From an uncultured virus (IMG/VR IMGVR_UViG_3300031335_000002) (lineage: Duplodnaviria; Heunggongvirae; Uroviricota; Caudoviricetes), in the IMG/VR virus record IMGVR_UViG_3300031335_000002: a stretch of DNA of 64,000 nucleotides. One strand, given 5' to 3'. The notes beneath the pieces were generated by a model. That model was not told the origin of the DNA, did not search any database, and worked only from the letters and a program-made list of their open reading frames with translations. Both the position numbers and the translations under genes were made by a program. This document shows, piece by piece, positions 9,025-63,898 of this stretch (position 1 is its first letter; the number at the start of each line of letters is the position of its first letter).

Positions 9025-9042
9025 CTTTAACGTCACCTAATT
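9025..9042 (-). promoter_or_regulatory. class A SP6-like phage RNAP promoter (AATTAGGTGACGTTAAA|G)
   Basis: Resembles SP6 ATTTAGGTGACACTATA|G; repeated across the window; followed by a UUCG-loop hairpin (about 9003-9022). Confidence 0.8.
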
Positions 9043-9062
9043 AACTATTAAAAATCAATAAA

Positions 9063-9599
9063 TTAGGTAGCTGCGATAGTCGACGGACCAACAAAGTCGA
9101 CCTGAACCGAAATGTTAATAACGGCGGTGTTTGAGTCAGTCAGAGACGGAGTCGGCTGGATGGCTTCGATCTTGCCTTTCCAGTAGAACTCTGTGTTATC
9201 AACATCCAGCGTAGCAGCTGTACCATCAGCTTCTGTTACCGCCGCAGCAGCAAACATAAAGCGGAAAGCAACTTCTTGACCTTTGATATCTTCAAATTCT
9301 AGAATATCGCTAGGCACGTAGTTGATTGTAACGTCCATCGACGGAGCATCAGATTGTCCTGATACCTGTGAGGACTGTTGTTGGCCAAATACAGGAACGT
9401 TAGTAATGTTAGCGGCGTTACCTACGGCTGGGAATTCTCGTGGCGAAGGTACGCGTAGAACGTCAGTTCCCGGTGTTCCGCCTGCGAATAGAGCTGCATA
9501 GTCTCCAGCGACAGAGTCGCCGTCGATAGCGCTAACATCGCCTGTAAAAACGTCCATGTACGAGTAAATACCAGACGTTAGTGAGCTAATGTGAGTCAT
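9063..9599 (-). CDS. major tail tube protein
   Basis: 178 aa; REFPAVG...VPVFGQ...QVSGQSDAP; synteny in the tail operon. Confidence 0.8.
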   Translation of the reverse strand: MTHISSLTSGIYSYMDVFTGDVSAIDGDSVAGDYAALFAGGTPGTDVLRVPSPREFPAVGNAANITNVPVFGQQQSSQVSGQSDAPSMDVTINYVPSDILEFEDIKGQEVAFRFMFAAAAVTEADGTAATLDVDNTEFYWKGKIEAIQPTPSLTDSNTAVINISVQVDFVGPSTIAAT

Positions 9600-9609
9600 A
9601 AATTTCTCC

Positions 9610-9996
9610 TTAGAGGTGTTTGGTAAATGAAGCTTGCCAGACCATCATGCCTAGTGCTTCATTGTCGGGGTCATCTTGAGGTTGCGAAAGTGTTGAGTAA
9701 TTGATTGTTAATGTATTGTCAATAAAACGATCAAACGTATCTTCTAAAGTACCAGCGTAGTCAACAGCGTCCATATGTCCGTTGTTTCTATCATAAAAGA
9801 TCCTAAAGAAAATCAGTCCTTCCATAACAGAGCCATCACCGAAGTCTTCACGCTCACGGTCGTTAAAGGAGATTGAGTATCTCCCGTATAAGCTCTCGTT
9901 AGAGATGTTACCTTTGTAATCCTCTGGGTAAGCTTCAAGTCCTGAAGCGCCAACTAAGCTACCTACAATGAGATAAACTGGTCTAAAACTAGACAT
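9610..9996 (-). CDS. tail terminator / completion protein (putative)
   Basis: 128 aa, immediately upstream of tail tube gene. Confidence 0.6.
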   Translation of the reverse strand: MSSFRPVYLIVGSLVGASGLEAYPEDYKGNISNESLYGRYSISFNDREREDFGDGSVMEGLIFFRIFYDRNNGHMDAVDYAGTLEDTFDRFIDNTLTINYSTLSQPQDDPDNEALGMMVWQASFTKHL

Positions 9997-9997
9997 A

Positions 9998-10839: not shown

Positions 10840-10856
10840 GAGTACCTCCTTTAAGC

Positions 10857-12822: not shown

Positions 12823-15800
12823 TTAGGGTCCTACACCATAAAAATCTTTATTAGGTACGTCCGTCAATATGTCTTCCCTAGTTATAGGGTTAGGCGGATC
12901 AATAAGACCAAGTTGTTTTGCTTCAGCGAGAAGTTCATCGTAGGTAGCCTTAGGCAACCCCTCTTTTCGCATTTCAGCAAGAGTTCTTCGGATAGTATCC
13001 CCCTCTAGGGCATCCGCATAGATTTCACGGAGAGCAGCTTTAGCGTTATCTGCTTCCGCTAGATTAGTAAAGAAAGCGTCGTGGATTGTACCAGTAGACT
13101 TGCCCTCTTTGCGGCCCCACAAGTGGAACTTGCGAACAATAACCGCGTCGTTAGAATGGTTTCCATTCACACCCAGACCAATAGAAGCATCTTGGACAGA
13201 TCCTTTTCCAAGGAGCTTGCCGTCTTCAGCTTGTGCTGCATAGATGTTCATAACCTTTCGTCCTGTTATGGGATCCCTGAATTCAATTCTCTCTTGAAGT
13301 TCCGGTCGGTATCTTTGTGTCATAACCTTACCGTCAAAAGTCACCCACGGGATGTCTACCTTTTTAGTTTCAGTTGTAAAGCGTTTAGATACTCTTTTCC
13401 AGAAATTAATGAATTCATTTGTAACAGGTGCTCTGTCAGACAGCTTCTCTGACATTAGCGCAGAAAGTTCTTTAAAGTCATTTGGGCCAATCAGGCCTCC
13501 ACGAGCACTAGTCACCTTAGCAACAAAGTCTGCCGTGTCGCTGTGAATTTCTTCTGCTTCTTTTAGAAGCCTTAGACCAATAGACTGGTCCTTGTTCACC
13601 ATATTGATAAGCTCACCCCTAAAGGCTTTCAGATTAGCTGAAGTAAGTTCTGCACCAATCCTATCTGCTTGTTTGATCTGTGAATCAATTATCCTAAGCT
13701 GACCGCTTAGCTCTGATTTAGTAATTGTAGTAAAGCCTCTTTCATCTAGAAGTTTAGATAGCTTTGCTGCAACGTTAGCGGTCTTAGTTGCCTCACCGGC
13801 ACCGTAGAAACTTACCCAATTTGTTCAATGGGGTGGTTATTCCCATCCGCATAACAATAACTTAGCTATGCTGCTACATGTTTCCATGCAGATCAGACTA
13901 TATCATCAACCTCTCTGTAGTAGGTTGCCCTGCGCTTCCACTCGACACTTGAGTGTACTCCTCTCGGATAGTCGTTGAACGTTCCTTATACAATACTATA
14001 GTATTGTATGAGGCTTCGCTGCTGATTGTCTTCACCGTTACGTGGTCAGAGTTTCCAGCAATTCACAGGGTTTAAAGAACACAATATAAGTTTATGTTCT
14101 GCGCTTTAGCACCTTTAGCAAGATCCTCCCAAGTCAAGTTCGCGTCACGGAGCGCCTTAATCTTGTTGAAACGAGGATCATTAATGGTGTCAATAGCCAC
14201 TAGGTCATAGAGTCTATTCTTTTGTGTCGTAGGAACAACGTTAGAGGCTTCCGAGACCATACGGTCCCCAGTAGAAAGCCCGATAATTTGTGCACCAGAG
14301 GACGACGCATCGTTCTCTATCATAAGACGTGTTTTAAATGATTTGAGTTTAGCAGCATCTCTCATGTCGCCGCCAACGTGGTCATATACACGAGCATACT
14401 CTAAAGCCATACGAGACATCTTAGGTACCTCGGGTCCTTCTAGACCCTTGATTAGGGGGTGTTCTAGGAACTCCCTCATACGCCTGTCTCTCTGGGTTTC
14501 TTGCTGCATTAGCCTTCCTAGAGAAAGGATGTCTTCCCGCTTTCTCTGAAAGATAGCCTTACGACCACTAAGGGTAAGAGCCTCTGTACCGGGTCCAATC
14601 ATAGCTCCAATCTGGGTTTCTAGCTCATCTACTGCATTGAGAGTCATTGGAGTAGCAATAGCATCATCTAAAAAGGGTCGAACCATCTCACCACCAGTAG
14701 GTGTCAGGTATCCACGGTGGTAGACACGGCCACGGCTATCCATGTATGTATCCGACCAAAAGGGTTTACCACGATTTGTCTGGTACCTGCCTGCTGTCAT
14801 GAAACCAAAGCCTTGGTCACCACGTTTGATGATCTCGTGTCTAAACTCATTAAGGCCATCGTAGTAATCTGTGTTACCGCGAGGGTCACGGAACCTAACA
14901 ACATCATCCATAAAGTTAAAGAACACCGGATCTGTTTGGTATTGTGTACCAGAGGCTTGGTTTAGAGCATTAGCAAAGTCTGCATCAACCTGATTTGCGT
15001 CAAAGCTAGCGTACTTACGTCTAGATATGATAGGTCTGCCGGTAACATTACCACGAGCATCAAAGGCTTCCTTCTTACCAGCGCGGACAAACTGCCTATC
15101 TCTATCAAAAGAAATACCCATACGTCTGCCAACAACAACTCGTCTTTCAGCCTTCTGTAGCTCAATAAGACGTTTGTCGATTACCTCAACCTCTCTAGAA
15201 ACTGTGTCTCCCCAGAAGCCTGTGGCACGACCTGTCTCTACATCTAGAACACCTCTGCGGGTCTTACCACGGTAGTTGAGACGGATCATCTTTCTGTCCT
15301 TCATGTAATCAAGGACTCTGGAACCGTCTTTGTGGTAGTCTTGTAAAGTGTGTTTCTGGAATGGGTTAACATCTTCTAGATCTTTTGCCATTTGTTTACC
15401 AATAGCAATAGAAAGACCGTCGTAGTCTGTCATTTGTCCAGAACCAACAAGCTTTACTGCTTTAGAAAGAGAGTTGAGTACTTTGTCATCCATTACCTTT
15501 GATGTAGGATTCTTCTTAGATGTAAGAAATTCAAAGTCAATAATTCTACGAATACGTTCATCGATACCACGTTCAAATCTAACAGCTAATTCGTCTGTGG
15601 GTGTTCTATACCATTTTAGGTACTTAGCAAATGAGGTTTTCTCCCAACGCTTCTTAAGTGTTTCGGGCTTCTTGACTTTTCCTAGAAGACCTTGGAAATA
15701 AGACCTTGGTGGGCTTTTCCCTCTGAAGTAAAGCTCTTTCGAGAGTTTAGCTCCAACACCAGTACGGAAGGAATCAATAGACCTCTGATCTGCAAGAAGT

Positions 15801-17494
15801 CTATCCTGTAGCTGATCAATCTTGTAGTAATCACCCATAAGCTGGACTTGAGGTCCTCCTTCTTTAGCACCAAAGAAGCGAGAAAATAAGTTGTATTTAT
15901 CTCTCTGTCTAGTATCAAGAAGACGGGCAGTGTTCTGAACAGCAAATCTATTTTCTGCTCTAAGTACATTAGCAAAGTTGTCCCAAGGCTGCTTGTCTTT
16001 CCTAGCTCGCTCTATTACAACCCTAAGGTTTTCAATAGCAACTGTTTGCTGATTTGTTGACACTTTCTCTTCTAAGGAGTTAATCACAGATCCAATGAAG
16101 TCTTTATCTTCAGATTGGAGGACTTTAGAGTTCCTCATGAAGTCAAGACGTTCTTGTAGAAGTGTGTAGTTAGGATCATAAAGGTTGTTGTTTCTTGCCT
16201 CACCTGTAAGGGGGTCGAAGCTATTATTACTTTCATCGAAGATGTTAGCTGTACGGCGACGAGCGGTTTGTTTACCTTGCAGTGTTGTACCTTTAAAGTC
16301 CGTTAGAGAGTAAGTTTTACCGAGATCATCAGCATCATTGACAAATAGATCTACAACCTCTCGCTTATACTTAGCATTCCTGACGAGGGTGCTAGGGCGC
16401 GCCACAGCGATCTGTGTTACGACATCTTCACCTATCGACTGCTTAGGGCGGAAAATGTTAGTAAGATTAGCAGCACGACGTCTCAAAGCAGTAATAGAGA
16501 GTGCGCTACCTTGAGGTGTCACGAAGTTATCGGCTTTGACTTCTCCTTTTCGGAAAAGATCTGCCTTTTCTTGACTACCAAGGATCTTTGTTTGGACATC
16601 ATAAGCCTGACGTTTAAGCCACTGACCAAAGGTTTCTTTCTCTGGGGGAGATCCTGTTAAAGAACTTCCTTTCGTGGTTTCAAGAGCAGCTAAATTGATC
16701 CTATCAGACTCTTTCTTTAGCAGTTCGGCTTTGCTCTCAAATATAGGAACAAGGGTAGAACGGCAGTTAAAGTGTAGTGGAGGGGCAAAACGCCTATCAC
16801 CTACATCATAGATCTTACCATCATGATAACGACAAATGCTAGAAGTACGATTATCAAGCATTGCTTGGAACATGTAGCCTTTGATGGCTTCCTTGTTTTC
16901 CCCTACCGCACTAAACAGAGCATCGCGCTGCGTAGCTGTGATACCTGTACGAGAAAGAGTACCCGCTTGGTGGGCTGTCATCTTGGTTGTTTTGCTGACG
17001 TCACTAATAATTTGATTTTGAGACTTATTATCTCTACGACCACGCTTCAACCAAGTTTGTACCCTAGTTGTCTCACCACGAGCAATGTTCTCTACGTTAT
17101 TTTTGATAGCAGCATCACCGTTGATACTAGCGCCAGTAATATCTGCTAGATCAGCCTTGTTCTTAGGTCTACGAACGGAGAACCATCCTTTAGTGTGTTT
17201 TGAGATACTATCAGTGTAGAAATCTACCTCAGCACCATGTAGCTCTGTCAAATTTGTCTTCTGCCAAGAAAAGAGCTCTGTAGCAAAACGGTTTTGCTCT
17301 CGTCTGAATTTGTTGGCTATTTTCTTCTTTTGATCAATAGTAGTTGTTGCTAAGTCTTCCTTAACAAGCTTAACTAGAGACTCACGATGACGATTTACAA
17401 TACGACTATTACCAATCTGAATGCTCTCTTCGAACTTTCTAACGTCAGTAAGGTGATCAATCACCTCGTCGTTCATTTTCTGTGTAACATCCAT
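12823..17494 (-). CDS. MuF/SPP1-gp7-like head protein fused to T7/SP6-family single-subunit RNA polymerase; spliced, exon 1 17494-14094 plus exon 2 13816-12823, about 1464 aa
   Basis: MuF motifs LDNRTSSICRYHDG and PPLHFNCRS. RNAP motifs DSRGRVY, A (NDASSSGAQ), B (K-AQNM|VSFYG, formed only after splicing), NGNHSNDA and C (TIHDAF). AGGAG RBS before ATG 17494. Confidence 0.9.
13817..14093 (-). ncRNA. group I self-splicing intron (IA-like), 277 nt, no ORF
   Basis: P1 AGAACAU/GUGUUCU with U.G at the 5' splice site; P10 AAACUUAU/GUAAGUUU; P AAUUGCUGGAAA; Q AAUCAGCAG; P3 CCCUGUG/CGCAGGG; P7 GACUA/UAGUC; terminal G; removal restores the frame. Confidence 0.93.
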
Positions 17495-17664: not shown

Positions 17665-17740
17665 TGGCCGACCCGGAAGGACTCGAACCCTCACTTGAAG
17701 ATTAGAAGTCAACTGTTCTATCCTGTTGAACTACGGATCA
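17665..17740 (-). tRNA. tRNA-Arg(UCU)
   Basis: Cloverleaf, loop CTTCTAA, GGTTCGAGTCC, CCA end. Confidence 0.88.
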
Positions 17741-17792
17741 GTGTATAGTGTTTATAGTTTATGTGTGTCGTATCCTAGCTTAATCTTATGTA

Positions 17793-17868
17793 TGGTGGTC
17801 CTGCCGGGACTCGAACCCAGATATTACGATTATAAGTTGTACGCTCTAACCAGTTGAGCTACAAGACA
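17793..17868 (-). tRNA. tRNA-Ile(UAU)
   Basis: Cloverleaf, loop CTTATAA, TAGCTCAACTGGTTAGAGC D arm, CCA end. Confidence 0.85.
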
Positions 17869-17881
17869 TTGATTATTAAAT

Positions 17882-17968
17882 TGGTACGGGTAGAGGGAGT
17901 CGAACCCCCACGTCTTTTAAAACACTAGGACCTAAACCTAGCGCGGCTACCTATTTCGCCATACCCGC
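17882..17968 (-). tRNA. tRNA-Leu(UAG)
   Basis: CTAGG-TTTAGGT-CCTAG anticodon arm, long variable arm, CCA end. Confidence 0.9.
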
Positions 17969-17969
17969 A

Positions 17970-18047
17970 TGGTCCCCCCACCCCGGACTCGAACCGGGAG
18001 AACCGGCAGTTTAAGTGCCGTACGGTTACCAATTACGTCAGTGGGGA
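17970..18047 (-). tRNA. tRNA with UAA anticodon (Leu), short variable loop
   Basis: CGGCA-CTTAAAC-TGCCG; CCCGG-TTCGAGT-CCGGG; CCA end. Confidence 0.8.
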
Positions 18048-18065
18048 ATGGTACCGTGTAATTAG

Positions 18066-18140
18066 TGGTGGAAAGGGGAAGAATCGAACTTCCTACGCGC
18101 AGGGCTTCAACCTACCGCTCTACCTCTGAGCTAATCGGGT
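18066..18140 (-). pseudogene. tRNA-Phe(GAA)-like gene with non-pairing acceptor stem
   Basis: D, anticodon (TTGAAGC) and T arms plus CCA are intact; 5' ACCCGAT does not pair with 3' CCTTTCC. Confidence 0.7.
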
Positions 18141-18152
18141 AAATATAAATAA

Positions 18153-18206
18153 TGGCAGCTTAGGTAGGACTCGAACATACATGTGTTACCAGTCAGCCAC
18201 TAAGCT
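18153..18206 (-). pseudogene. 54-nt tRNA-like element lacking the anticodon arm
   Basis: Perfect acceptor AGCTTAG/CTAAGCT, T loop TTCGAGT, GCCA end. Confidence 0.6.
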
Positions 18207-18212
18207 ATTAGT

Positions 18213-18359
18213 CTATCCAGCGATGAGAGCAAGAAAGATCACAAAAGCTATTGCCCCGCCACCTACAAGGAGGCCAAGTGATTTAGTCTTAGACCAAGCT
18301 TTCACTTTATCTTTTGCTTCGATGACTTTTTCCTTTGCTGTATCAATGATGTCTTTCAT
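18213..18359 (-). CDS. small membrane-anchored protein inside the tRNA cluster
   Basis: 48 aa from ATG 18359 with AGGAG RBS; C-terminal transmembrane segment. Confidence 0.65.
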   Translation of the reverse strand: MKDIIDTAKEKVIEAKDKVKAWSKTKSLGLLVGGGAIAFVIFLALIAG

Positions 18360-18382
18360 TGTATATCTCCTGATATCGAATA

Positions 18383-18457
18383 TGGTTGCGCAGAGGGGAG
18401 TTGAACCCCTAGTACAGGCCTTATGAGGGCCGCGTGTTACCATTACACCACCGCGCG
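18383..18457 (-). tRNA. tRNA-Met(CAU), initiator-like
   Basis: C1xA72 mismatch, loop CTCATAA, TTCAACT T loop, ACCA end. Confidence 0.85.
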
Positions 18458-20148: not shown

Positions 20149-20199
20149 GTCCGGCCCTCCTTTCTGCTTAAATTACCTTAAATTAAGGGGTTTTCTCTT

Positions 20200-20217
20200 C
20201 TTTAACACATCGTATTT
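20200..20217 (-). promoter_or_regulatory. class B phage RNAP promoter (AAATACGATGTGTTAAA|GAAGAG)
   Basis: Same initiation region as class A with a T7-like ATACGA binding region; upstream of portal. Confidence 0.65.
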
Positions 20218-20410
20218 ATGTTTTGTCTGCTGTAGGATCCTCTCTTGAGATCTAAGGCTTGAGGCTCTTTAAAAGTACTTGTTTAAGCTATCAACAAACA
20301 ACAATGCTTTCGATTCAAGAGAGGTCCTCTTAGGGTCTCTTCTTAGCATCTACTGACTCCGATCTCGTCAGTAAGGTCCCTAGTTAGGATTCTTAAGGGT
20401 TTTCCCCTCT

Positions 20411-20428
20411 CTTTAACGTCACCTATTT
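20411..20428 (-). promoter_or_regulatory. class A phage RNAP promoter
   Basis: AAATAGGTGACGTTAAA|GAGAGG. Confidence 0.8.
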
Positions 20429-20555
20429 ATGTCTTTATTTACAAAGACTTATCTATCCTAAAACCATGAGTTTTGTCTAAATTTAGCATCTACTGACTCC
20501 GATCTCGGCAGTAAGGTCCCTAGTTAGGATTCTTTAAATTTTCTTTTTTCCTCTT

Positions 20556-20573
20556 CTTTAACGCATCGTATTT
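20556..20573 (-). promoter_or_regulatory. class B phage RNAP promoter
   Basis: AAATACGATGCGTTAAA|GAAGAG. Confidence 0.65.
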
Positions 20574-28221: not shown

Positions 28222-28267
28222 ACTCTTCTCCTAGTAAGTGAGGGAGGACCCTAAGGTTTCCCCCTCT

Positions 28268-28285
28268 CTTTAACGTCACCTAATT
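28268..28285 (-). promoter_or_regulatory. class A phage RNAP promoter for the tail-tip operon
   Basis: AATTAGGTGACGTTAAA|GAGAGG followed by a hairpin. Confidence 0.8.
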
Positions 28286-28590
28286 ATGTGATAAAAAACA
28301 AACCCTTAGTTACTCCCTTTTTTTTTTTTTCACTTTGAAGCTTAAGACTTGCTCCAAGACTTGTGAGTAAGTCAATTGGGCTTCCTTTAAAGAGCCGCTA
28401 AATGGACGGCCCCGGACAGTGTGTCCTGATCTTGGTTTGTCGTGTTGTCAGGTGACTACGACGTTGTAATCGACGCCATCAGTGAACAGCGATGAAGCAG
28501 ACCCAAATGTGTATACATCTATCCCGTCACTGGTTTCAGAAAACGTCAATTCTGTCCCGACGCCGCGCTGCGATTTGGGCGGCTACTGTT

Positions 28591-28854
28591 TCAGTCATCT
28601 GCCCGCCTTAACGTTTCAATTTCAGCAAGCAAGGCTTTCGCGTCGGACACGTCATTCAGAAACGACCGCTCGCAGTGGTCGGGGTTGCGCTGCCAGAAGA
28701 ATATGGCGTCAATAAACCGCTCACCCCGGCGGCCCTGCCGGTGCATCCGGGCGCTAACGCTTTCGTTCGGCCCCGTCTCTGTCAAGTCAACCGCCGTCAT
28801 AACGTTGCCAAGCTGCGACAGGGCCGAACCGATCATGGATATGCGCTGCATCAT
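28591..28854 (-). CDS. hypothetical phage protein
   Basis: SQLGNV...PNESVSAR...FIDAIFFW...HCERSF, a conserved-looking small phage protein. Confidence 0.75.
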   Translation of the reverse strand: MMQRISMIGSALSQLGNVMTAVDLTETGPNESVSARMHRQGRRGERFIDAIFFWQRNPDHCERSFLNDVSDAKALLAEIETLRRADD

Positions 28855-29470: not shown

Positions 29471-29481
29471 TGGGTCGCTCC

Positions 29482-30933: not shown

Positions 30934-30944
30934 TGTTGTGGCTC

Positions 30945-38592: not shown

Positions 38593-38780
38593 CCTAGGAT
38601 CCTCTCTTTAGATCTGAGGTCTAAGGCTCTGTTAAATTATTTATTAACAAATAATCAACAAACAACAGTCCTTTCGATTCAAGGGAAGACCCTTTAGGGT
38701 CTCTTCTTAGCATCTACTGACTCCGATCTCGTCAGTAAGGTTCCTAGTTAGAATCCTTTAGGGTTTCTTTTTACCCTCTT

Positions 38781-38798
38781 CTTTAACGTCACCTATTT
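38781..38798 (-). promoter_or_regulatory. class A phage RNAP promoter
   Basis: AAATAGGTGACGTTAAA|GAAGAG. Confidence 0.8.
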
Positions 38799-39050
38799 TA
38801 TTTCTTTACTTTCAATTGTTTATCTACTATAAAACTGTAAGTTTTGTTAAAAAAGGTAAGATCCTCTTAGGATCCCTAGTTAGGATCCTACCTTAAGTCT
38901 CTGTTAAAGTATTTATTAACAAATAATCAACAAACAACAATGCTTTCGATTCAAGGGAAGACCCTTTAGGGTCTCTTCTTAGCCTCCACTGACTCCGATC
39001 TCGTCAGTAAGGCCCCTAGTTAGGACCCCTATTTAGGGGTTTTCCCCCTT

Positions 39051-39068
39051 CTTTAACGTCACCTATTT
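39051..39068 (-). promoter_or_regulatory. class A phage RNAP promoter
   Basis: AAATAGGTGACGTTAAA|GAAGGG. Confidence 0.8.
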
Positions 39069-39157
39069 TTTCTCTTTACTTTCAATTGTTTATCTACCTT
39101 AAACTATGACTTTTGTCAAAAAAGATAAGATCCTTTAGGGTTTCTTTTTACCCTCTT

Positions 39158-39175
39158 CTTTAACGTCACCTATTT
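39158..39175 (-). promoter_or_regulatory. class A phage RNAP promoter
   Basis: AAATAGGTGACGTTAAA|GAAGAG. Confidence 0.8.
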
Positions 39176-39236: not shown

Positions 39237-39302
39237 AAAAAAAAAAAAAAGGGGGTATGACCCCCACCCCATCCCAATTAAGGGACAGGATGGGGGTTCA
39301 TG
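39237..39302 (-). terminator. intrinsic terminator
   Basis: Long GC-rich hairpin (ATGAACCCCCATCC...GGGTGGGGGTCAT) followed by a long U tract. Confidence 0.65.
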
Positions 39303-48542: not shown

Positions 48543-50746
48543 TAAAACTTTCCTTTTTGGTTCATGACTAGGTCTTCATACTGCTTAACAGTATCTTTAT
48601 TCCATCCGTTCAGTTTAGATAGGAGTGGAAACAGGGAAGATCGTTCTTTCGAGATTGCCTCAATGATACGATCGTAAGAAACAAGATGTCCTGACTCTTT
48701 AACATCAGCCCTAACTGAGTTAATTTTGTGTAGATCATCCCTCGTTATAGATGCGGTAATTTTCTCAAGTTTTTCATAGATTGGCCTTATAGCATTTATA
48801 TGCCTGCTTGGCCAAAACGGAAGTGTGTAAGAATTGTAAGAGGAATTTATGATATTACTAATACGATTTTTTGCAGTTATGCAATGCCTCAGATTAACAA
48901 GACGTTTGTATTCTCCACTATTAATTACCTCTTTAGCAGTGACATCAAGATTAATCCAATCTGGGTCTTTATCAAATCGACTCCACATAGTTTTAGGAAC
49001 AATAACAACTTTATCATCAGGACTTAGCCCAAGAATACTTTTCCAGTTAGGGAGAAGAAAATTTTCCTTGAAAGCCCCGTCTTGGATATCGTTTCTAAAC
49101 ATGCGAAGATAGTAACCACCCTCATCAAATTCTTCAGGTTCAAGTGTAGTATCGTAACCACGGAAGCTGCCATTCCCTTTCAGTTCCCTGAGTTTTACAC
49201 GAGACCTCCCCTTTTTAGGATGGGTGTAGTCTATTTCGTGGGTAAAAATAGTTCCCCTATTCTCTTTTGCACGCCTAGACTTATAGGTCTTTATCTGATC
49301 CAGAGCTTCTTTCTCGTTGTCGTCCGTTATTTCAACATAGGAAGCTCGACTAAAACCTTTTTCCGTTAGGTACTTATGTACACGTCTGGCATTATGCTTT
49401 GCTTGGGGCGCTCCCTTCCTTTGATCGGATATAATAAGAATTGGATCTGTGGTAAGCCGGTAAATTGAATCAGTAAAATGATTTGTTTTAGTAATTTTTG
49501 CGTTGGCTGTGGCTTTATGATCTATCCAAGCAAAAGAAAATTGGTCTAGCTCGGTTAGAATATGGGAATTGAGTAATTTGCCCCAAACAGAAGTAAACCT
49601 ACCTTCTTTGTAAACAGTAGCATTCCCATATTGCGGTTTCTTTGGGTCATATTTTTCTAGGTTTGAGTTAGTACTAAATTTTACTATTGAACTGGCAGAA
49701 GTGAAGTATTGTTGCTTAAAATAGTTATGTGAAACTCTACTCCGAAAGTATTTGTTAGCTTCTTCAAGCGTTTTAAATTTGTTTACTACTTCAAGAGTAT
49801 CCTCTAAGATTACATCTGATACTTCATTAATTCTCTTTTTAATAGAGTCAGCAGTAGGTTCATCTTTACCGAAAGATAGCTCCTCCCGAGACAGAGTTAT
49901 CTCAAGTTCCCCCATTTCAAAGGGTAGGACAATAATGTCATCACGACCACAAAGTTTTGTTAGAGTAATAATTTCGGAAGAAGAAACATAATCGTTAGGC
50001 TTGATAGGATAAAGAACGGTACCCATTTTAGCAAAAACAATGGTTTCGTTATACCCTATCCCTACGGGGCTTCCGTTTTTATCACAGAAATTGCCTATCT
50101 TGTAAAGACCTTTTTTATCAATGTCATATTTGATACGCTTTTTAGGCTCAAACCCCTCTGGGATAGGGTCATAGGCGAGAGAAACCCACTCAGCAGCATC
50201 CCGGAAAGACTGAACGTCTCTAGCATCAACAGGGAAAGTTACCTCTAGACCAGTTTCATCATTAGAGTCTTCCTCGTGCATCAAGTTAATGGTTGGTACA
50301 CCGTCTCGACCAATTACTGCTGAATAGACCCTACGCTTTCCATCATGCCAAGATGTAACCCCGTATGTGTCAGTGTAGGAGAAAGGCGATTTAGAACCAA
50401 GACCCCACTTGCCCGTTTGAGAGTTTGTATCCTCTTTTGTAGATTGGAACACAGTTGTATACAGTCCCATGACATCTTCATGAGACAATCCATAGCCATA
50501 ATCACGCACCCTAAACTCGTTGTTGAACAAACTAGGAAACGTAACAGAAAAGGGGCGGTCCTTGTTACCACGTTCTGTATGAGCGTCGTAAGCGTTAGAC
50601 CAGATTTCCCTAGTAATTGATTCCGCCTTGCGGGAGTATAGACCGTCAATAAGAGCCTTAAAGGCCTTTCCATTCTCAGCAATTTTGAAACGACCTTCTT
50701 GAGACACGCTCGTACGTACATCACGTTCTTCTTGCATCAACTTCAT
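48542..50746 (-). CDS. rIIA: rIIA-like protein (N-terminal GHKL ATPase)
   Basis: REIWSNAYDAH, VRDYGYGL, STK...GKWGLGSKSPFSY; coupled to rIIB. Confidence 0.9.
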   Translation of the reverse strand: MKLMQEERDVRTSVSQEGRFKIAENGKAFKALIDGLYSRKAESITREIWSNAYDAHTERGNKDRPFSVTFPSLFNNEFRVRDYGYGLSHEDVMGLYTTVFQSTKEDTNSQTGKWGLGSKSPFSYTDTYGVTSWHDGKRRVYSAVIGRDGVPTINLMHEEDSNDETGLEVTFPVDARDVQSFRDAAEWVSLAYDPIPEGFEPKKRIKYDIDKKGLYKIGNFCDKNGSPVGIGYNETIVFAKMGTVLYPIKPNDYVSSSEIITLTKLCGRDDIIVLPFEMGELEITLSREELSFGKDEPTADSIKKRINEVSDVILEDTLEVVNKFKTLEEANKYFRSRVSHNYFKQQYFTSASSIVKFSTNSNLEKYDPKKPQYGNATVYKEGRFTSVWGKLLNSHILTELDQFSFAWIDHKATANAKITKTNHFTDSIYRLTTDPILIISDQRKGAPQAKHNARRVHKYLTEKGFSRASYVEITDDNEKEALDQIKTYKSRRAKENRGTIFTHEIDYTHPKKGRSRVKLRELKGNGSFRGYDTTLEPEEFDEGGYYLRMFRNDIQDGAFKENFLLPNWKSILGLSPDDKVVIVPKTMWSRFDKDPDWINLDVTAKEVINSGEYKRLVNLRHCITAKNRISNIINSSYNSYTLPFWPSRHINAIRPIYEKLEKITASITRDDLHKINSVRADVKESGHLVSYDRIIEAISKERSSLFPLLSKLNGWNKDTVKQYEDLVMNQKGKF

Positions 50747-51726: not shown

Positions 51727-51958
51727 TCTTTTCCTCTTTGAATTTAGATACAGTCATAGCCACATCGTCGTAGATACCGTCAGATCCTTGTACGAACCTA
51801 CGAGCATTTTTCTCACCGTGTTCATGCTTTACGTTGTACACGTCATACAACGCCCCTTTCTCGTAGAATTGAGTTTCAGACAGCACACAACGCAGCTTCG
51901 AATTTGTCTTGATTATTTGATTTGTTTGACCAGAGTAGTGAGGTTCCAAACTTTCCAT
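51692..51958 (-). CDS. hypothetical protein
   Basis: About 88 aa ORF in operon. Confidence 0.6.
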   Translation of the reverse strand: MESLEPHYSGQTNQIIKTNSKLRCVLSETQFYEKGALYDVYNVKHEHGEKNARRFVQGSDGIYDDVAMTVSKFKEEKNGKRNKGACDK

Positions 51959-52634
51959 TTTCAATTTCCTTTCGGAATCCTATAATGTGAGAGAGATGAT
52001 GTGCGGATACTTGGTATCCATCTTTGTAGTCTTTATTGTATTTAATAGCAATCTTATCACACCAAGAGTTCCACATGTGTTCTGGATTCTTCATTGGCTC
52101 GTGATAACATAGACCGATATATCTAGTTACAAGATCGCGATTACGCCAAACGTTGTATTCGTAATTAGGGTAGGGGGAATTATCGTAATTTGGCTTTTTA
52201 TTTGCTTTCAAAACCCTGTCTGATAACTTTGATATTGTCTCCCACCTAATACTTTTGTAGGGACGGGAACTAGGTAGTTCAAACTTGTGCTTTTTGTTAA
52301 AGTCCTGTATGTGATGTGTATCAATGCAACCTATGGGGTGCCCACACATTTGCAGAACAAAACCAACTTTTGTAAGATTCAGACCCTTTATATCCAGCAA
52401 GTGGTAAAACCTATCAGTGAGACAAAACTCTTCGCTTGTTGCAGCTTCAAAGTACTTATCAACGTTGTCAACAAGATGTGACCAACCTTCTTCTGTTGTT
52501 GAGGTAATTTTGTTATCTACATCAATTCTGTTAAAAGGGCGTCGAATTGAATGCATTGTAAACCTACACACAGCAAGGAAGCCTTCAATAGACTTCGCTT
52601 GCTGTGCAATAAGGGGGACATGTTCATTATACAT
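51876..52634 (-). CDS. HhH-type DNA glycosylase-like protein (putative)
   Basis: IKGLNLTKVGFVLQM...IGCIDTHHI resembles the HhH motif followed by a catalytic Asp. Confidence 0.55.
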   Translation of the reverse strand: MYNEHVPLIAQQAKSIEGFLAVCRFTMHSIRRPFNRIDVDNKITSTTEEGWSHLVDNVDKYFEAATSEEFCLTDRFYHLLDIKGLNLTKVGFVLQMCGHPIGCIDTHHIQDFNKKHKFELPSSRPYKSIRWETISKLSDRVLKANKKPNYDNSPYPNYEYNVWRNRDLVTRYIGLCYHEPMKNPEHMWNSWCDKIAIKYNKDYKDGYQVSAHHLSHIIGFRKEIENGKFGTSLLWSNKSNNQDKFEAALCAV

Positions 52635-55687: not shown

Positions 55688-55770
55688 CTTATCTCCTATA
55701 TAGTTATTAGACTAATTTGTTATTTAATGAGGCAGGTTCCTTACCCTGCCCCACCGTAGTTATTCTTCAT

Positions 55771-55788
55771 CTTTAACGTCACCTAAAT
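55771..55788 (-). promoter_or_regulatory. class A phage RNAP promoter
   Basis: ATTTAGGTGACGTTAAA|GATGAA; first 11 nt identical to the SP6 promoter. Confidence 0.8.
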
Positions 55789-55964: not shown

Positions 55965-58682
55965 TTAGATTTCTTTCATTTCTTCTACTCTCATGAGCTT
56001 GTCTGTATCAGCCTGCATCCTTCCAGTTTTATGATTGTAATATAGCTTACCAGCAGGGCCGGTTTGGCCAGTGAAGCGACACTTGAGTACACTTAGCATC
56101 ATAGTGTTTCGCTCTTTCTCGTCGTCTGACTCTTGGTTTCTTGCAAAGCCAATGACGTCGAAAGAAATCTGTTTGATAGAACCAGAATTGTGGGTGATTA
56201 TATGGTTACCCAATAAGAACCTACCGTCTCCGTCTAAGGTAAAGCCATAGTATCTATCTTCATTAAGTTTCTCAATGATAATTTCTCTTTTTAGACAGTC
56301 ATTACGTTTCCTACTAGGTGGTACTCTTGATGACTTTTGACAAGGTATCTTATCTATTGCACCTGAAATCGTTACTTGGTAAATAGTAGAGTTATATGAA
56401 GAATAGCTTGTTGAAGTTATCTTTTGAGGGCGACAAGTACTATAAAAACCTAAAGACCTTGCAATGTCCTTTACATCTTCCGCCATTGTTTTATCTTTCT
56501 GGTAAAAATAAAAACACCTGTCTTTCTTTGAGTAAGTTCCGTCTGTATCTATTAACCCGGCAATTAACTGGATTCTATTTTCCCTAGAGTTAAACTTATA
56601 GTCAGGAGGAATGTGTTTGTTATTTAGAACACCAATATGCCTTAATTTATTGAGTAAATCACCTTTTGTAGTAGTTACAAAGTTGAAATATTCTTTCTTT
56701 CTATTAGATGGTGTCTTCAAAGTTGCATTCAATTCTTTACTTACCCTTTTTGCAATACCTAAGTCAGAAGCATCCATGATCCTGAAAGCAGACTTAGAAC
56801 CGTCTCCAAGCCAAACCCCTAAAGAGTAAGGGGGTATAATAAGATCCTTATTATCTAGTTCATACCCTTCCGAGAAGTGTTGTTTACACCTAACCTGAAA
56901 GCTTTTACTTTTATCTAAAAAGTCTTTAACTTTCATATCAAACATTCTATTATTTCTTGATAGAGTCAATACATGGTTCTCATTACAGATAAAATAATCT
57001 TTTGATGTTTTGTTAGATACTTTATACATACGTTGTTCACCGGTTTTTAGGCTCATAACTGTTCTTGGTAATGAGTCTGGACCCATGAGCTTGTCACCAA
57101 CTTTGATGTCTTGTACTTTTACTTTTCTACCCTTATAGCTTAATACTTCTGTGTCATAAGCTAAACAACCTTTGATGTCGTCTAGGGACGGAATACGACC
57201 TTGTTCAAAAGTTTTCTGGTCGTTGTTTCTTTTACGAAGGTGAGAGATTAGACCAATCCACACATCATACTTCTTAGCTAGATGCAAGAGACTGTTCATA
57301 ATCTTGTCAATGGCTTCATTACCAGTAAGCCCGTCTGAACCTTCAGAAACAAGAATTGTAATGTGATCGATAAAAAGATACTTACAACCTTTCAGACACA
57401 TGAACTCTAGGTGGTCCATAATAGACCCGTCGCTGATAGAGCCTTGATGGTCCAACACCAGAATATCTCCATCTGCGAAGACCTTATCAAAGCCTTCTCT
57501 CAGGTTTTCCATAGGGACATCTTCGTAAGAGGGGTTCTTGTTGATAGCCATACCAGAGAGCTTCTTAGTGTACTCCTCTGGTGACTCCTCTAGGCTGATG
57601 ATACCTACCCTACTAGAGGAGTGAACCCATGCCTCTCCGGTCTCCTCTGAGACACCCTGCTGTAGGTGGTAAACGATCTCTCTCATTAGGGTAGACTTCC
57701 CAGAGCCTGTGCCAGAGGTCCAAAGGGTGATTTCACCAGTTCGTATACCTCTAAGCTTTTCGTTTAGACCCTCCATATAGTCTGGGTAAGGTACAGACTG
57801 TTTATTGTTATATGCCTCTAGCCTTTCCCAGAGGTCTTTACCGTTAAGAATAGCAGCAGGAGAATACTCTCTAGCATCAGCAATAGCCCAAACTACGTGG
57901 TCTATGCCATACTCTTTTGCATAGTCGCAAGCATCCTTTACACCATCAACTGTCTGAACAACTTTAACCTTGTCGTAGCCAAGTATCTTAGCGGCTTCTT
58001 TAGTTGCTTTTTGACCGGGTCCGTCATTATCAAACCAGATAACAATCTCATCAAACTTCCTGAGTTCCTCTCTTACGTCAATTAAGTCTTTTGTTGCAAC
58101 GGAACTTTGAATAGAGTAAACAGGGTAGTGTCTTTTATAGATGCCGTAGTTGCCATCTTGTACTTTCATACAGTCGTCTTCACCTTCGGTGATTACTACC
58201 CTCTTACCCTTGTTTGGGAACAGACCCCAACCAAACAAGCCTTTCATTTCACCTACTGTGCCTTCAGAGAAATCCTTAGGTAGAACTCTCTTCTTATAGC
58301 CTTTTGGAATACCATCATCAATGTTATAGGCATAATAAACTGCTTCTTGGTCTCCATCATCAAAGTAGGATACTTTACAGTTGTATAGCTCCATTGTTCG
58401 TAGAGATATTTTCTTCAACTCGTATTTATCCGAGTCATAGGCATCAAATACAGCTTTGGCAAACTTAGGGTCTTTACGATCAGACCAACCCTTTGGTTTC
58501 TTAGAGTATTCCTCCTTTGTTTTATATTCTCCGGTACCCATTTCCTCTCCAGTATCGGGATCAAACGACCCTGATTTAAACTTTGCTCCACATTCTGCAT
58601 TATGACAGTAACCACCACCATCATCAAAGACTGTGAAGCTGTTACCCCCATGAGCGGGGCAAATCTGATTATACTTGGGCAT
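55965..58682 (-). CDS. T7 gp4-like DNA primase-helicase containing an intein
   Basis: Zn finger CPAH...CHNAEC, TOPRIM ITEGEDD/FDNDGPG/KDACD, Walker A SGTGSGKS, FIDHI, ISHL, DIKG|SGSIKQ, KCRFTGQTG. Confidence 0.95.
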   Translation of the reverse strand: MPKYNQICPAHGGNSFTVFDDGGGYCHNAECGAKFKSGSFDPDTGEEMGTGEYKTKEEYSKKPKGWSDRKDPKFAKAVFDAYDSDKYELKKISLRTMELYNCKVSYFDDGDQEAVYYAYNIDDGIPKGYKKRVLPKDFSEGTVGEMKGLFGWGLFPNKGKRVVITEGEDDCMKVQDGNYGIYKRHYPVYSIQSSVATKDLIDVREELRKFDEIVIWFDNDGPGQKATKEAAKILGYDKVKVVQTVDGVKDACDYAKEYGIDHVVWAIADAREYSPAAILNGKDLWERLEAYNNKQSVPYPDYMEGLNEKLRGIRTGEITLWTSGTGSGKSTLMREIVYHLQQGVSEETGEAWVHSSSRVGIISLEESPEEYTKKLSGMAINKNPSYEDVPMENLREGFDKVFADGDILVLDHQGSISDGSIMDHLEFMCLKGCKYLFIDHITILVSEGSDGLTGNEAIDKIMNSLLHLAKKYDVWIGLISHLRKRNNDQKTFEQGRIPSLDDIKGCLAYDTEVLSYKGRKVKVQDIKVGDKLMGPDSLPRTVMSLKTGEQRMYKVSNKTSKDYFICNENHVLTLSRNNRMFDMKVKDFLDKSKSFQVRCKQHFSEGYELDNKDLIIPPYSLGVWLGDGSKSAFRIMDASDLGIAKRVSKELNATLKTPSNRKKEYFNFVTTTKGDLLNKLRHIGVLNNKHIPPDYKFNSRENRIQLIAGLIDTDGTYSKKDRCFYFYQKDKTMAEDVKDIARSLGFYSTCRPQKITSTSYSSYNSTIYQVTISGAIDKIPCQKSSRVPPSRKRNDCLKREIIIEKLNEDRYYGFTLDGDGRFLLGNHIITHNSGSIKQISFDVIGFARNQESDDEKERNTMMLSVLKCRFTGQTGPAGKLYYNHKTGRMQADTDKLMRVEEMKEI
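56187..57167 (-). mobile_element. intein with LAGLIDADG homing endonuclease (327 aa)
   Basis: Starts CLAYDTEV, block B CNENHVL, LGVWLGDG and LIAGLIDTDG, ends ITHN followed by Ser. Confidence 0.95.
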
Positions 58683-60962: not shown

Positions 60963-61155
60963 TTAGACCTTTCGATTTTACGAACTCTTCAAGCTCTAGA
61001 ATTCTATACCACATAGAAAGAGTGAAGTTTGGTAGGTCATGGTGAAAGTTCAGACCTGTGTAGTAACCATGTCTCAAGACTCTACCGGGTTTATCATTAA
61101 AGTTTTTGTTGAACTCAATGCTATAAGTGTCGTCAATCTTTTTAACTTTGGTCAT
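60952..61155 (-). CDS. hypothetical protein
   Basis: 67 aa. Confidence 0.6.
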   Translation of the reverse strand: MTKVKKIDDTYSIEFNKNFNDKPGRVLRHGYYTGLNFHHDLPNFTLSMWYRILELEEFVKSKGLNVP

Positions 61156-61185
61156 TGATTGTGTACCCTATCTTTCTTATTATGA

Positions 61186-63213
61186 TTAGTGGACTTCAAA
61201 GTAGTCTTTTCCAGCTTTACAATCCCCGCATACCATAATGTCAACACCGAATTCTTTCGGGGCTTCCTTAAAACTCTCAATGATGATTTCTTTTGCTCTT
61301 TCAACGTAATCGTTTCTTACTTCAATATTGATCTCATCATGATAGAACAATAGGAATCGGTGGGCAATGCCCTCTTCTTTAAACCTACGCCAAATCATGG
61401 AGATAGTTGCCTTCATAACGATCGCCTCAGCACCTTGGATGAGGTAGTTGAGAGCTTTATGAGGCTGATTGCAATAGATATGTCGATCGTCTAGACCTAC
61501 GATAAATCCTTGCTTTTTTACAATATTTTTAACACGATTGATCAAGCTATCAAGGTTTGGATAAGCCTTTTGGAACTCCTCTTTAAGTTGGAAACCAACA
61601 GACTCGGGAAGCTTTAGAATCTTGGCAAGTTTAGGCCCTCCGGCACCGTAAAGAAATGCAAAAATGAAGGGTTTGGCATCTGCTCGGCTGACAATAGTTG
61701 ATGACTTAAGAATAGATGTAGCACTACGAGAAAGAATATTAGCATTGTTCTGATGCATGTCTCCTTCGAGAAGTTCTTTTAGGAACTCATCATCTTTCAT
61801 GTAATGAGCTAGAAGCCTTAGCTGACAACCAGCGGAGTCAGCCGACACAACAGACCAACCCTCTTCAGCAATAAAGAGGCTTCTGACTTCTTTCCCAAGT
61901 GTAGCATTACCTGATGGTAGATTTACAATAACGGACTGAGTCTGTCTAAAGGTTGGTGTACCAATATTAATAACATCTCCGTGGAGACGATCATCATCAG
62001 AGAAATGATCTTCCCATCCATCCATAATTGATTTACGAGACCTTAGAGTGTAAAACTCATTAATGTCTCCTGCGTTATCAAGCAACTCTAACGAAGTACT
62101 AGTAATTTTTGGGGAAGTCCTTTTCCAATAACGTTTACCTCTTTCGTCAAACTCCCACTTACCATTCCAGTCATCTGGCTCCCAGCCAATTTTCCATAGA
62201 TATCGTTTAACTGAGTCTGTAGAACCAATATCAGCATCACGGAATGTTACACGACAGTAATCACCCCAAACACCGTAGTTGTTCTTCTTACCTGCATCCT
62301 TTGGTAAGTCAAAGGTTTCACGAAGTGCTTTCGAGAACAGACCATTCTTTTGAACAGCCCATTTCTTAGCAAAGCCACCAGTGAAGTTGTCGTGATCGTA
62401 CTCGTCTGTGTATCTTATGGTGTCAGATTTATACCCTTTCCGATCTCCACTGATCTTCTGAGGCTCTTTACCAAGACGAGGATTAACTTCTGATGTAATC
62501 TCATCCATACGTTTGTCAATTTTATCGATAACATCACAAACGCTTTTCCGATCAATTAACCAACCGTTAATGAGTTGTTCTGCGGCAATTCTAGCAGAGT
62601 CTGTCTCAATTTGGATAGCTCTTACAATGTTCTTCTGCCCTGATTTGACCATATGGGTTACTTCGCCTAGTAGTTCTTTATAAATAGGAACCATAAGACG
62701 AACGTCTTGTTTCATATACTCAAACATTTCTTTACTGAACTTAGTAAAGTCTGTCCATTCACCTTTGTAGTTGTCAAGGTGAATACCCCATCGGGCAAGG
62801 CTGTGGCTATCACCCATGACAAGCTTAGGTTTTTTAAACAAACCAAAATCACCCTGTTCATTCCGCCATTTTAGATAGTTTTGGTAGTTCTGATCAGAAG
62901 CATCAAACCTATTATAATTGAGCACTCTAGACATAACATGGGTATCAACAAACTTATCGTGATTATGCTTGTACCATGTTATACCGTTAAGTCTTGCTAG
63001 CTTAATAAGTAGGTATTCGTCGTAGCCCGCGCCGTTATGAGCAGCGCGGACATCGTATGTACATAGGTCTCTTAAAAACTTTTCAAATTCGAGAGGACCG
63101 TACCATTTTTCTTCCTTAGTATCAAGGTCTATAATACCGCCGCAGAACCATCTGTCTGCGCTTCTTAGGAACCCGTTTGCTTCAGTGTCGTAGACACACC
63201 TTCGTCTAGCCAT
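61186..63213 (-). CDS. family A DNA polymerase (T7-like, with 3'-5' exonuclease)
   Basis: YDTEANG, HNGAGYD, motif A ADSAGCQLRLLAHY, motif B AKPFIFAFLYGAG (Phe at the position of E. coli PolI F762), motif C YHDEI. Confidence 0.96.
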   Translation of the reverse strand: MARRRCVYDTEANGFLRSADRWFCGGIIDLDTKEEKWYGPLEFEKFLRDLCTYDVRAAHNGAGYDEYLLIKLARLNGITWYKHNHDKFVDTHVMSRVLNYNRFDASDQNYQNYLKWRNEQGDFGLFKKPKLVMGDSHSLARWGIHLDNYKGEWTDFTKFSKEMFEYMKQDVRLMVPIYKELLGEVTHMVKSGQKNIVRAIQIETDSARIAAEQLINGWLIDRKSVCDVIDKIDKRMDEITSEVNPRLGKEPQKISGDRKGYKSDTIRYTDEYDHDNFTGGFAKKWAVQKNGLFSKALRETFDLPKDAGKKNNYGVWGDYCRVTFRDADIGSTDSVKRYLWKIGWEPDDWNGKWEFDERGKRYWKRTSPKITSTSLELLDNAGDINEFYTLRSRKSIMDGWEDHFSDDDRLHGDVINIGTPTFRQTQSVIVNLPSGNATLGKEVRSLFIAEEGWSVVSADSAGCQLRLLAHYMKDDEFLKELLEGDMHQNNANILSRSATSILKSSTIVSRADAKPFIFAFLYGAGGPKLAKILKLPESVGFQLKEEFQKAYPNLDSLINRVKNIVKKQGFIVGLDDRHIYCNQPHKALNYLIQGAEAIVMKATISMIWRRFKEEGIAHRFLLFYHDEINIEVRNDYVERAKEIIIESFKEAPKEFGVDIMVCGDCKAGKDYFEVH

Positions 63214-63620
63214 TCGTCTCCTCCTTGGAAAGTCTCGTTAGGAATACCGGGATAAAAGAGATTCATGTCTACACCAAGGTCTTTACACTGTTTAATCTTT
63301 CCCATGTGTGCCCAAGGAGCAAATTCCCGTGGCTGTTTCTGTGTATCAGAAATGCGGTTGTGAGCATCCATAAGATACCAGATTGCCTTTTCTAGCTCAA
63401 TACGCTCATCATCTTTTCGACCAAGACGAGTTTGATACTTTAGTGCGTTGACCACACTCGGTGTAACATAGGGATTGATCTTACTACCAATGTAGGCAGC
63501 AAGGTCATTGTATCCAATGTCCCTACCAGTTTGCAAGGCTCGGATCATTTCCTCTGCCGGAATCAGTTGGTGATGCTTAGCTTGCACCGAGTTTTGGCCT
63601 TTTTCACGTTCTGTTGTCAT
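63165..63620 (-). CDS. DUF3310 / T7 gp1.7-like nucleotide kinase
   Basis: NALKYQTRLGRKDD...ELEKAIWYL. Confidence 0.7.
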   Translation of the reverse strand: MTTEREKGQNSVQAKHHQLIPAEEMIRALQTGRDIGYNDLAAYIGSKINPYVTPSVVNALKYQTRLGRKDDERIELEKAIWYLMDAHNRISDTQKQPREFAPWAHMGKIKQCKDLGVDMNLFYPGIPNETFQGGDEWLDEGVSTTLKQTGS

Positions 63621-63880
63621 ATAATACCTCTTCTTTAGTTATAGTTAAGACTGTTCCTTCTCACTCTGGAGAAGGTCTGTTTTCTTAGCGTACACTGGGA
63701 TTGCCTCTTTTTTGTGGTGGTTATAAAAGTTTGCGCGTCTCTCTGTGTCATACATCTTTCCTCTAAGTCCTATCAACGCTGAAGTTTGTTCTTTCTCTGT
63801 TCCGTTTCGGGCAACTACATCTCTCCACCTCTTGACACTGAATACGTGGGGGACCCACCAACCAACACAGACCTCTTCAT

Positions 63881-63898
63881 CTTTAACGTCTGCTAATT
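63881..63898 (-). promoter_or_regulatory. class A variant phage RNAP promoter
   Basis: AATTAGCAGACGTTAAA|GATGAA upstream of the DUF3310-polymerase operon. Confidence 0.7.

Follow-up and report, generated by a model that had tools for sequence, protein, structure and literature searches.

In bacteriophage T7, the first promoter of the phage RNA polymerase (RNAP) lies directly after the polymerase gene, and in N4 a virion RNAP, whose promoters are hairpins on single-stranded DNA, is followed by a two-subunit RNAP II and then by the host RNAP. For the Thermus siphovirus P23-45, a polymerase fused to a virion protein is described as transcribing the gene of a free second polymerase, and two promoter motifs are given (PMC10770324). 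Here we analyse a stretch of 64,000 nucleotides (nt) from an uncultured tailed virus (Caudoviricetes; IMG/VR record IMGVR_UViG_3300031335_000002), referred to as the window, along which a 19-nt motif termed class A (AWWTAGGTGACGTTAAAGA) recurs. A reading made from the letters alone (the sequence-only reading) had taken class A for a genome-wide set of SP6-like promoters serving a phage single-subunit RNAP, either a MuF head protein fusion encoded in the window (MuF-RNAP) or a second enzyme outside it. Two predicted promoter classes are found in this phage; the other, class B, is the early one and precedes the gene of a second, free polymerase (RNAP2). We consider it highly likely that class A is the promoter of RNAP2, and we assign it to this enzyme rather than to MuF-RNAP because its base at −11 changes together with the RNAP2 residue equivalent to T7 748 across relatives. 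A phage polymerase promoter is well known as a kind of element, and a relay of two polymerases has precedents in P23-45 and N4; it is the assignment of class A to RNAP2 by covariation that is new here.

Class A is a repeated, one-directional motif of ∼17+6 bp ahead of operons. The window holds seven exact matches and one match with two mismatches, all on the minus strand, which is the coding strand throughout (site numbers such as 9025 and 20411 denote the predicted +1 G), whereas 100 shuffles gave a mean of 0.07 matches and a maximum of one, so that the set is real as had been claimed. None of the seven exact sites falls within an open reading frame (ORF) of at least 70 aa, the area outside the ORF list being 12% of the window; site 55771 overlaps a 33-aa ORF. 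A matrix trained solely on 19 sites from the cultured relative DSS3_VP1 (VP1) and a further relative, G005, was then applied to the window. All seven exact sites, an eighth exact site beyond the window and a degenerate copy at 20556 scored above the shuffle maximum of 13.5, the best score on the reverse strand being 5.9. The degenerate copy at 20556 and a weak one at 20200 are additional to the set first reported; the latter lies at shuffle level, as does the two-mismatch variant at 63881 (13.8). Intergenic placement, asserted for every site, stands for the exact copies and is not supported for 63881, which lies within a 99-aa frame that is open in three of six near-identical contigs checked and frameshifted in the other three and in the window. 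In the near-identical contig G002 this variant shows T in place of the −7 C that is fixed elsewhere; the variant is probably a coding look-alike or else a weak promoter inside the frameshifted ORF. The frameshift in this ORF (window 63946 to ∼63650) occurs at an A-run whose length differs among the near-identical contigs, and phase variation or sequencing error are both possible.

Four of the seven exact copies (20411, 38781, 39051 and 39158) sit within larger duplicated blocks (families D5–D7), so that the window amounts to about four independent class A contexts, with a fifth outside. Single sites lie 45–84 nt ahead of operon starts, and the motif is found in front of both replication and virion genes, as proposed. 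The hairpins said to follow several sites hold for several and not for all, since the +1 to +45 segment has z < −1.5 in 4/10 window sites (18/62 over all genomes), and a stem beginning at or before +3 with an energy below −8 kcal/mol is present in 5/10. Most of the other viral contigs with an exact match to the 16-mer are not similar to the window, and their matches appear to be isolated and unrelated.

The genes in the window, among them those for capsid, portal, terminase, tape measure, T7-like DNA polymerase and primase-helicase, are those of a long-tailed phage of marine type. Among 50,697 phage records, full-length relatives of MuF-RNAP were found only in VP1, DSS3_PM1 (PM1; 60%) and EBPR siphovirus 1. 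VP1 and PM1 are cultured roseophages of the Naomiviridae in which deoxyuridine (dU) replaces thymidine (dT) in the DNA, as shown for these two only (PMC8323127). The window phage resembles VP1 in gene order and in the identities of MuF-RNAP (60%), RNAP2 (64%), DNA polymerase (59%) and capsid (69%); 32 of 70 tested VP1 proteins match the composite map, mostly in order, in keeping with the Naomiviridae core genes, and both motif classes stand at matching places in VP1 and PM1. The putative deoxythymidine triphosphate-removing phosphatase of VP1 (gp50; YfbR/HD family) has a counterpart at 44% over 167 aa, whereas the ribonucleotide reductase differs from that of VP1. The putative deoxycytidine monophosphate (dCMP) deaminase (VP1 gp66) gave no tblastn match in the 75-kb composite; uncultured Naomiviridae members are also reported without dCMP deaminase, so gp66 may not be defining (PMC12669031). 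The composite itself derives from contigs 99.4–99.7% identical to the window that run past both its ends, of which G002 (99.5%) bridges the ends with 11,189 bp to give a map of ∼75.2 kb; it is on this bridge that the second RNAP envisaged outside the window was found (Table 1).

The class A family comprises 15 sites in VP1 and 14 in PM1, none of them on the reverse strand, with clusters ahead of the packaging operon and the portal gene and singles behind the major tail and RNAP2 genes. Within VP1, positions −10 to −8 vary, and in other relatives the upstream half reads TACC/TAGC, CAGG or CTCTT, with C at −7 and the TAAA/G start kept (the slash precedes +1). EBPR siphovirus 1, whose MuF-RNAP is distant, carries neither motif class in the 50 kb examined. 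An argument from the joint presence and absence of MuF-RNAP and class B was dropped, as tblastn finds both in G007 and class B in G011. In G007, a freshwater-type relative, the head module with MuF-RNAP lies on the strand opposite RNAP2.

RNAP2 is a free T7-type polymerase of 731 aa after splicing, 64% identical to VP1 gp56; VP1 and PM1 are its best phage matches and Pelagibacter phages (36%) the next best. Its catalytic motifs (DGSNNGVQ, RSSVKRNTMTLGYG and VHDSF) are intact. The model of the VP1 orthologue (copy L114; predicted local distance difference test, pLDDT, 90) superimposes on the T7 polymerase–promoter complex 1cez over 669 residues (Z 34.2, root-mean-square deviation, rmsd, 4.4), and the RNAP2 loop aligns gaplessly to T7 Q737–N748, giving Arg at the places of both 746 and 748. 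In MuF-RNAP, a MuF head protein runs on into a T7-type polymerase in which DASSSGAQ and IHDAF are intact; splicing out a 277-nt intron (14093–13817), which obeys the U and G rules, restores the frame. Its model (from G005) is poorer (pLDDT 70.5) and shows the T7 fold, matching 1s76 with Z 24.8 and rmsd 9.8 over 621 aligned residues. The two polymerases are barely similar in sequence, and in structural matches both models lie closer to T7 than to the N4 enzymes (Z 34–43 versus 18–20 for RNAP2, and 18–25 versus 14 for MuF-RNAP). Group I introns interrupt the catalytic motifs of both polymerase genes (13817–14093; G002:19162–19882), the RNAP2 intron carrying a NUMOD4-HNH endonuclease and that of MuF-RNAP having no ORF. 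Directly upstream of RNAP2, G002:17811–18344 (L100) encodes a protein with two helix-turn-helix (HTH) domains, shared with VP1 as gp55, which is a candidate regulator or cofactor.

In T7, the promoter is read with R746, N748, R756 and Q758 (PMC11880802), and N748 contacts −11 (PMC8874028). In each relative, sites ahead of the gene next after RNAP2 were scored with hand-set weights confined to −14, −13 and −7 to +2, and the top-scoring one was taken; this score is blind to −12 to −8, so that −11 played no part in the picking. The anchor gene was present in 174 of 182 loci, and 156 of these scored at least 13. All 156, a redundant set, follow a single pairing of the 748-equivalent residue with −11 (E–C 96, K–G 33, R–G 11, W–T 13, L–T 3). 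Reduction to less than 93% identity left 49 representatives, of which 42 pass the score cut-off, the remaining 7 rows being dropped before the column scan. All 42 follow the −11 rule, and the 748-equivalent column ranks first of 460 with an adjusted mutual information of 0.90 (next 0.77). On a quick tree there are 3–4 independent joint changes of residue and base, and one L/T lineage is nested within the E/C group. As a control, the loop of MuF-RNAP reads ERIEF in the window and G005, where −11 is G, and equally in G008, G009, G012, G013 and G015, where it is C. A fixed Arg at the T7-746 place of RNAP2 stands alongside the fixed C at −7. In agreement with these pairings, SP6 (Arg, −11 G) and the T3-type 748D, which goes with −11 C (Table 2 of PMC11880802), fit the same code.

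Placement adds to this evidence. The stretch from the terminator at 2203 to the RNAP2 gene contains four class B sites and none of class A; the first class A site follows 0.7 kb after RNAP2, and the MuF-RNAP gene is itself behind class A sites. The motif and its placement, the two polymerase genes with their catalytic motifs, the covariation and the lack of class A before RNAP2 are direct observations. The proposal that these sites are targets of a phage single-subunit RNAP is very probably right, and of the two enzymes offered the covariation favours the one outside the window, since the MuF loop does not follow.

Several points weigh against this assignment. On re-inspection of the seven dropped rows, two follow and five break the −11 rule, making 44/49 overall; the five (V–A, W–G, R–T, R–A and K–T) belong to one divergent subclade whose motif ends in TAAT/GA. 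Kin share labels, so the large counts have only the 3–4 independent joint changes behind them, and the tree on which these were counted is midpoint-rooted, with the window and VP1 joining on long branches. RNAP2 was taken from near-identical contigs and not from the window's own assembly, and the fold models are those of relatives (VP1 copy L114 and G005), not of the window proteins. Finally, RNAP2 is ∼150 aa shorter than the T7 enzyme and has the HTH gene directly upstream, so it may need a cofactor. In the divergent group (G022 and loci L157, L339, L346, L357 and L358) class A ends in TAAT/GA like class B and mostly breaks the rule. In the exception G022, where K goes with T at −11, the 756 place is occupied by His; T at −11 is also taken by a T7 variant engineered to 748K/756H (Table 2 of PMC11880802), which offers a lead only towards an explanation.

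The likeness to SP6 (NC_004831) was also examined. Class A shares the SP6 consensus from −14 to −7 (TAGGTGAC) and the purine-rich start GAAGAG, several class A sites are identical from −17 to −7 to the promoter at SP6 8413, and both RNAP2 and the SP6 enzyme have R-V-R at the 746–748 places with −11 G. All 13 plus-strand matches in the SP6 record have −11 G and CACTAT at −7 to −2, whereas class A has CGTTAA there, with G, T and A at −6, −5 and −2 where SP6 has A, C and T. RNAP2 is not an SP6 relative (27% identity over 654 columns; 731 versus 874 aa); unlike SP6, the window phage is long-tailed, with 75 kb and two polymerases, and its relatives lose the SP6 likeness. The shared R-V-R loop thus points to a mechanistic cause of the likeness and not to kinship, while the variation at −10 to −8 within VP1 and the TACC, CAGG or CTCTT of other relatives indicate that it is partly chance. 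The sequence-only reading saw here a candidate new orthogonal RNAP–promoter pair; orthogonality to SP6 is doubtful because RNAP2 shares the SP6 loop.

With T7 and T3, the system has in common a 17-bp promoter, a link between the 748-equivalent residue and −11, an acidic residue paired with C and a first site just after the polymerase gene; it differs in pairing K/R with G and W/L with T, in the group I introns of both polymerase genes, and in that the early genes are apparently under a second phage motif and not under host promoters. Like P23-45, the window phage is a siphovirus with a virion-fused and a free polymerase and two promoter motifs. The P23-45 enzymes are described as two-barrel polymerases, with the tape measure as carrier and the host enzyme serving late genes (PMC10770324), whereas here both enzymes are T7-type, the carrier is MuF, and the late operons bear a phage motif. 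As in N4, two T7-superfamily polymerases would act in turn; N4 differs in its two-subunit RNAP II and its single-stranded hairpin virion promoters, and the present models are nearer to T7.

The promoter activity, +1 position and timing of class A, which we infer, would be as follows. Class A would have the 17-bp layout of a T7 promoter, with transcription starting at the G that follows TTAAA, and the specificity loop of RNAP2 would read −7 (C) through its Arg equivalent to T7 746 and −11 (G) through that equivalent to T7 748. The class B motif would drive the early region and with it the RNAP2 gene; the enzyme so made would then fire the class A sites, the first 0.7 kb past its own gene, and transcription from these would supply the products of the replication genes and of every virion operon, among them the MuF-fused polymerase needed in the following round.

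A reading in which MuF-RNAP, alone or together with RNAP2, uses class A would draw on its intact DASSSGAQ and IHDAF, its modelled T7 fold, an Arg at the 746 place that matches the fixed −7 C, and the fact that it is the only polymerase inside the window. However, its loop stays ERIEF whereas class A alternates between TAGG and TACC, its own gene sits behind class A sites, and there is no class A ahead of the early genes, so a virion enzyme reading class A alone could not start an infection; we regard this reading as very unlikely. Still further from credible, and close to dismissal in our view, is that class A is an operator or activator site at which a phage DNA-binding protein acts with host RNAP. 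The two-HTH gene directly upstream of RNAP2 and shared with VP1 would supply such a protein, yet class A is non-palindromic, strictly one-directional, of T7-promoter length and covariant with an RNAP2 loop residue, and sigma-70-like sites are not enriched in the scanned regions (25 versus 31.0 expected, 18 versus 22.8 and 16 versus 18.6). T7 employs promoters for origin priming and packaging, and the clustered copies (38781–39158 and 20200–20556) could mainly serve replication or packaging, or small structured RNAs, and not messenger RNA. Tandem promoters, A+T-rich spacers, a repeated 135-nt structured leader and VP1 clusters at the same two places speak for such a role, whereas the single sites stand shortly before operon starts, the leader is seen solely in near-identical phages, and replication or packaging would be an addition to RNAP2 promoter function and not an alternative to it; as a main function it appears improbable.

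Which enzyme serves class B is less clear-cut than the pairing of class A with RNAP2. Four class B sites lie ahead of the early genes and RNAP2 and a fifth ahead of rIIB, and the motif is present in four further genomes scanned by script. It is almost invariant over 56 distinct sites and carries a fixed TATAAT, both partly by construction of the search, with a GTGAGA box 13 nt upstream, a conserved GCATC ahead of TATAAT, and a +1 that is sometimes A and not G. T4 middle promoters combine a host sigma-70 −10 element with an upstream box for a phage activator. By the same token, the perfect TATAAT, the occasional A at +1 and the near constancy across the family would suit a host sigma-70 promoter with a box for a phage activator, early transcription then depending on the host RNAP and MuF-RNAP having another job. 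Against this, a gap of only 13 nt separates TATAAT from the TTGACA-like GTGAGA, less than sigma-70 requires, the sigma-70 scan calls no class B site, GCATC is conserved, and the −10 base of class B changes from C to T in the sole clade in which the MuF loop changes from ERIEF to TSIEF (one event). We judge the host promoter reading unlikely, if well short of negligible. For the MuF family, SPP1 Gp7 is reported to bind the portal at 1–2 copies per capsid (PMC5576092); from this precedent and its MuF domain, MuF-RNAP would be packaged in the particle. That it is packaged and reads class B is the option towards which we lean, with a good deal of reserve. The wider proposal, that the Naomiviridae programme is free of host polymerase, an injected MuF-tethered polymerase reading class B and RNAP2 reading class A on uracil-containing DNA, is tentative and stands somewhat below an even chance.

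Table 1. Coordinates of predicted promoters, polymerase gene parts and associated elements in the window (the slash in the class B motif precedes +1).
Feature	Position	Strand	Remarks
Class A promoter, +1 9025	9024..9042	-	Predicted; tail chaperone, tail completion, tape measure; strong 5′ hairpin from +1, z −3.3; matching VP1 site 29397
Degenerate class A copy, +1 20200, weak	20199..20217	-	52 nt before portal gene; score 13.1, within shuffle range
Class A promoter, +1 20411	20410..20428	-	Predicted; portal, tRNAs, MuF-RNAP, scaffold, capsid; VP1 likewise has three sites before portal
Degenerate class A copy, +1 20556	20555..20573	-	Score 19.6, above shuffle maximum 13.5
Class A promoter, +1 28268	28267..28285	-	Predicted; distal tail, hub, central fibre, endolysin genes
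Class A promoter, +1 38781	38780..38798	-	Predicted; third of cluster ahead of packaging operon
Class A promoter, +1 39051	39050..39068	-	Predicted; within local duplication
Class A promoter, +1 39158	39157..39175	-	Predicted; 91-nt block (D6) 98% identical to that of 39051
Class A promoter, +1 55771	55770..55788	-	Predicted; after primase-helicase, before ribonucleotide reductase; VP1 site in same region at 55099
Class A variant, probable coding look-alike or weak promoter	63880..63898	-	In 99-aa ORF, frameshifted in window
Window edge	64000	-	RNAP2 2.0–5.0 kb beyond, G002:18361–21277; then exact class A site, +1 G002:21979
MuF-RNAP exon 1	14094..17494	-	MuF head domain, then polymerase as far as motif B
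Group I intron of MuF-RNAP, 277 nt	13817..14093	-	RF00028, 103 bits; U before, ends in G
MuF-RNAP exon 2	12823..13816	-	Specificity loop, motif C (IHDAF)
Class B motif, first of early region	1805..1836	-	AAAAGTGAGAAAA-N5-GCATCTATAAT/GA
Class B motif	671..702	-	Inside 360-bp tandem duplication
Class B motif	311..342	-	Second copy of 360-bp duplication
Class B variant	48742..48773	-	Inside end of rIIA, 201 nt before rIIB; score 31.2, next best −0.4
Terminator-like hairpin, 12 pairs	2175..2203	-	Behind tape measure gene; would keep class A transcription from running on into early region
Terminator-like hairpin with long U run	39251..39265	-	Just ahead of 39158 promoter cluster
Structured leader, ∼135 nt, after promoter 38781	38622..38756	-	Repeats 38894–39028 (93%) and 20258–20392 (77%); partial 20483–20551

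The multi-hairpin leader could be a source of small RNAs, a set of processing sites or origin elements; an Rfam search gave no family for the leaders, its hits being the intron, transfer RNAs (tRNAs) and one sub-threshold match. At window positions 1–660, a 360-bp segment is duplicated exactly and in tandem, and each copy has its own class B motif and 63-aa ORF; the duplication may be genuine or may stem from assembly. Five tRNA genes (Arg-TCT, Ile-TAT, Leu-TAG, Leu-TAA and Met-CAT) and a degenerate sixth lie at 17665–18457, between the portal and MuF-RNAP genes. The primase-helicase (55965–58682) contains an intein with a LAGLIDADG endonuclease, and 120 nt of this intein (57549–57668) are 83% identical to non-coding 39316–39435, adjoining the promoter cluster. 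The tail fibre genes at 28500–34400 have a G+C content of 51–57% against ∼43%, and this block was probably acquired. A 252-aa ORF at 51876–52634 without a Pfam match is shared with VP1 gp79 at 33%; an Atlas lead connects it with a HhH/8-oxoguanine glycosylase-like cluster at a score of 0.92, the family being present on 58% of its members, and the ORF may bear on DNA modification.

In the open literature we found no paper on class A or class B promoters or on Naomiviridae polymerases, most subscription papers and bioRxiv supplements being outside our reach. The main text of the Naomiviridae description mentions RNA polymerase 0 times, and its supplement gives gp28, the MuF-RNAP of VP1, only as a minor head protein (PMC8323127). 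The VP1 motif appears, without assignment, as the first repeat group for MN602266 in the sheet 'others' of Supplementary Dataset S1 (PMC11880802, 2025), and the accessible text of PMC13029058 does not mention Naomiviridae phages.

The finding provides a specific, testable polymerase–promoter pair. The phage family concerned is abundant in seawater (PMC12669031) and has cultured members, for whose transcription our searches of open papers turned up no account. DSS3_VP1 carries both polymerases and both motifs, so that the steps proposed here are directly testable in it. The T7 recognition code is extended with natural K/R–G, E–C and W/L–T pairs, contributed by a lineage that does not belong to the T7-like set, and a compact enzyme of 731 aa is on offer for in vitro transcription, bearing in mind that the window pair may cross-react with SP6. 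If the relay is indeed free of the host polymerase, it would be a single-subunit answer to the transcription of dU genomes, and the family would offer a natural series of polymerases and promoters with a readable 748 code, in which some enzymes might favour, or even depend on, promoters containing dU.

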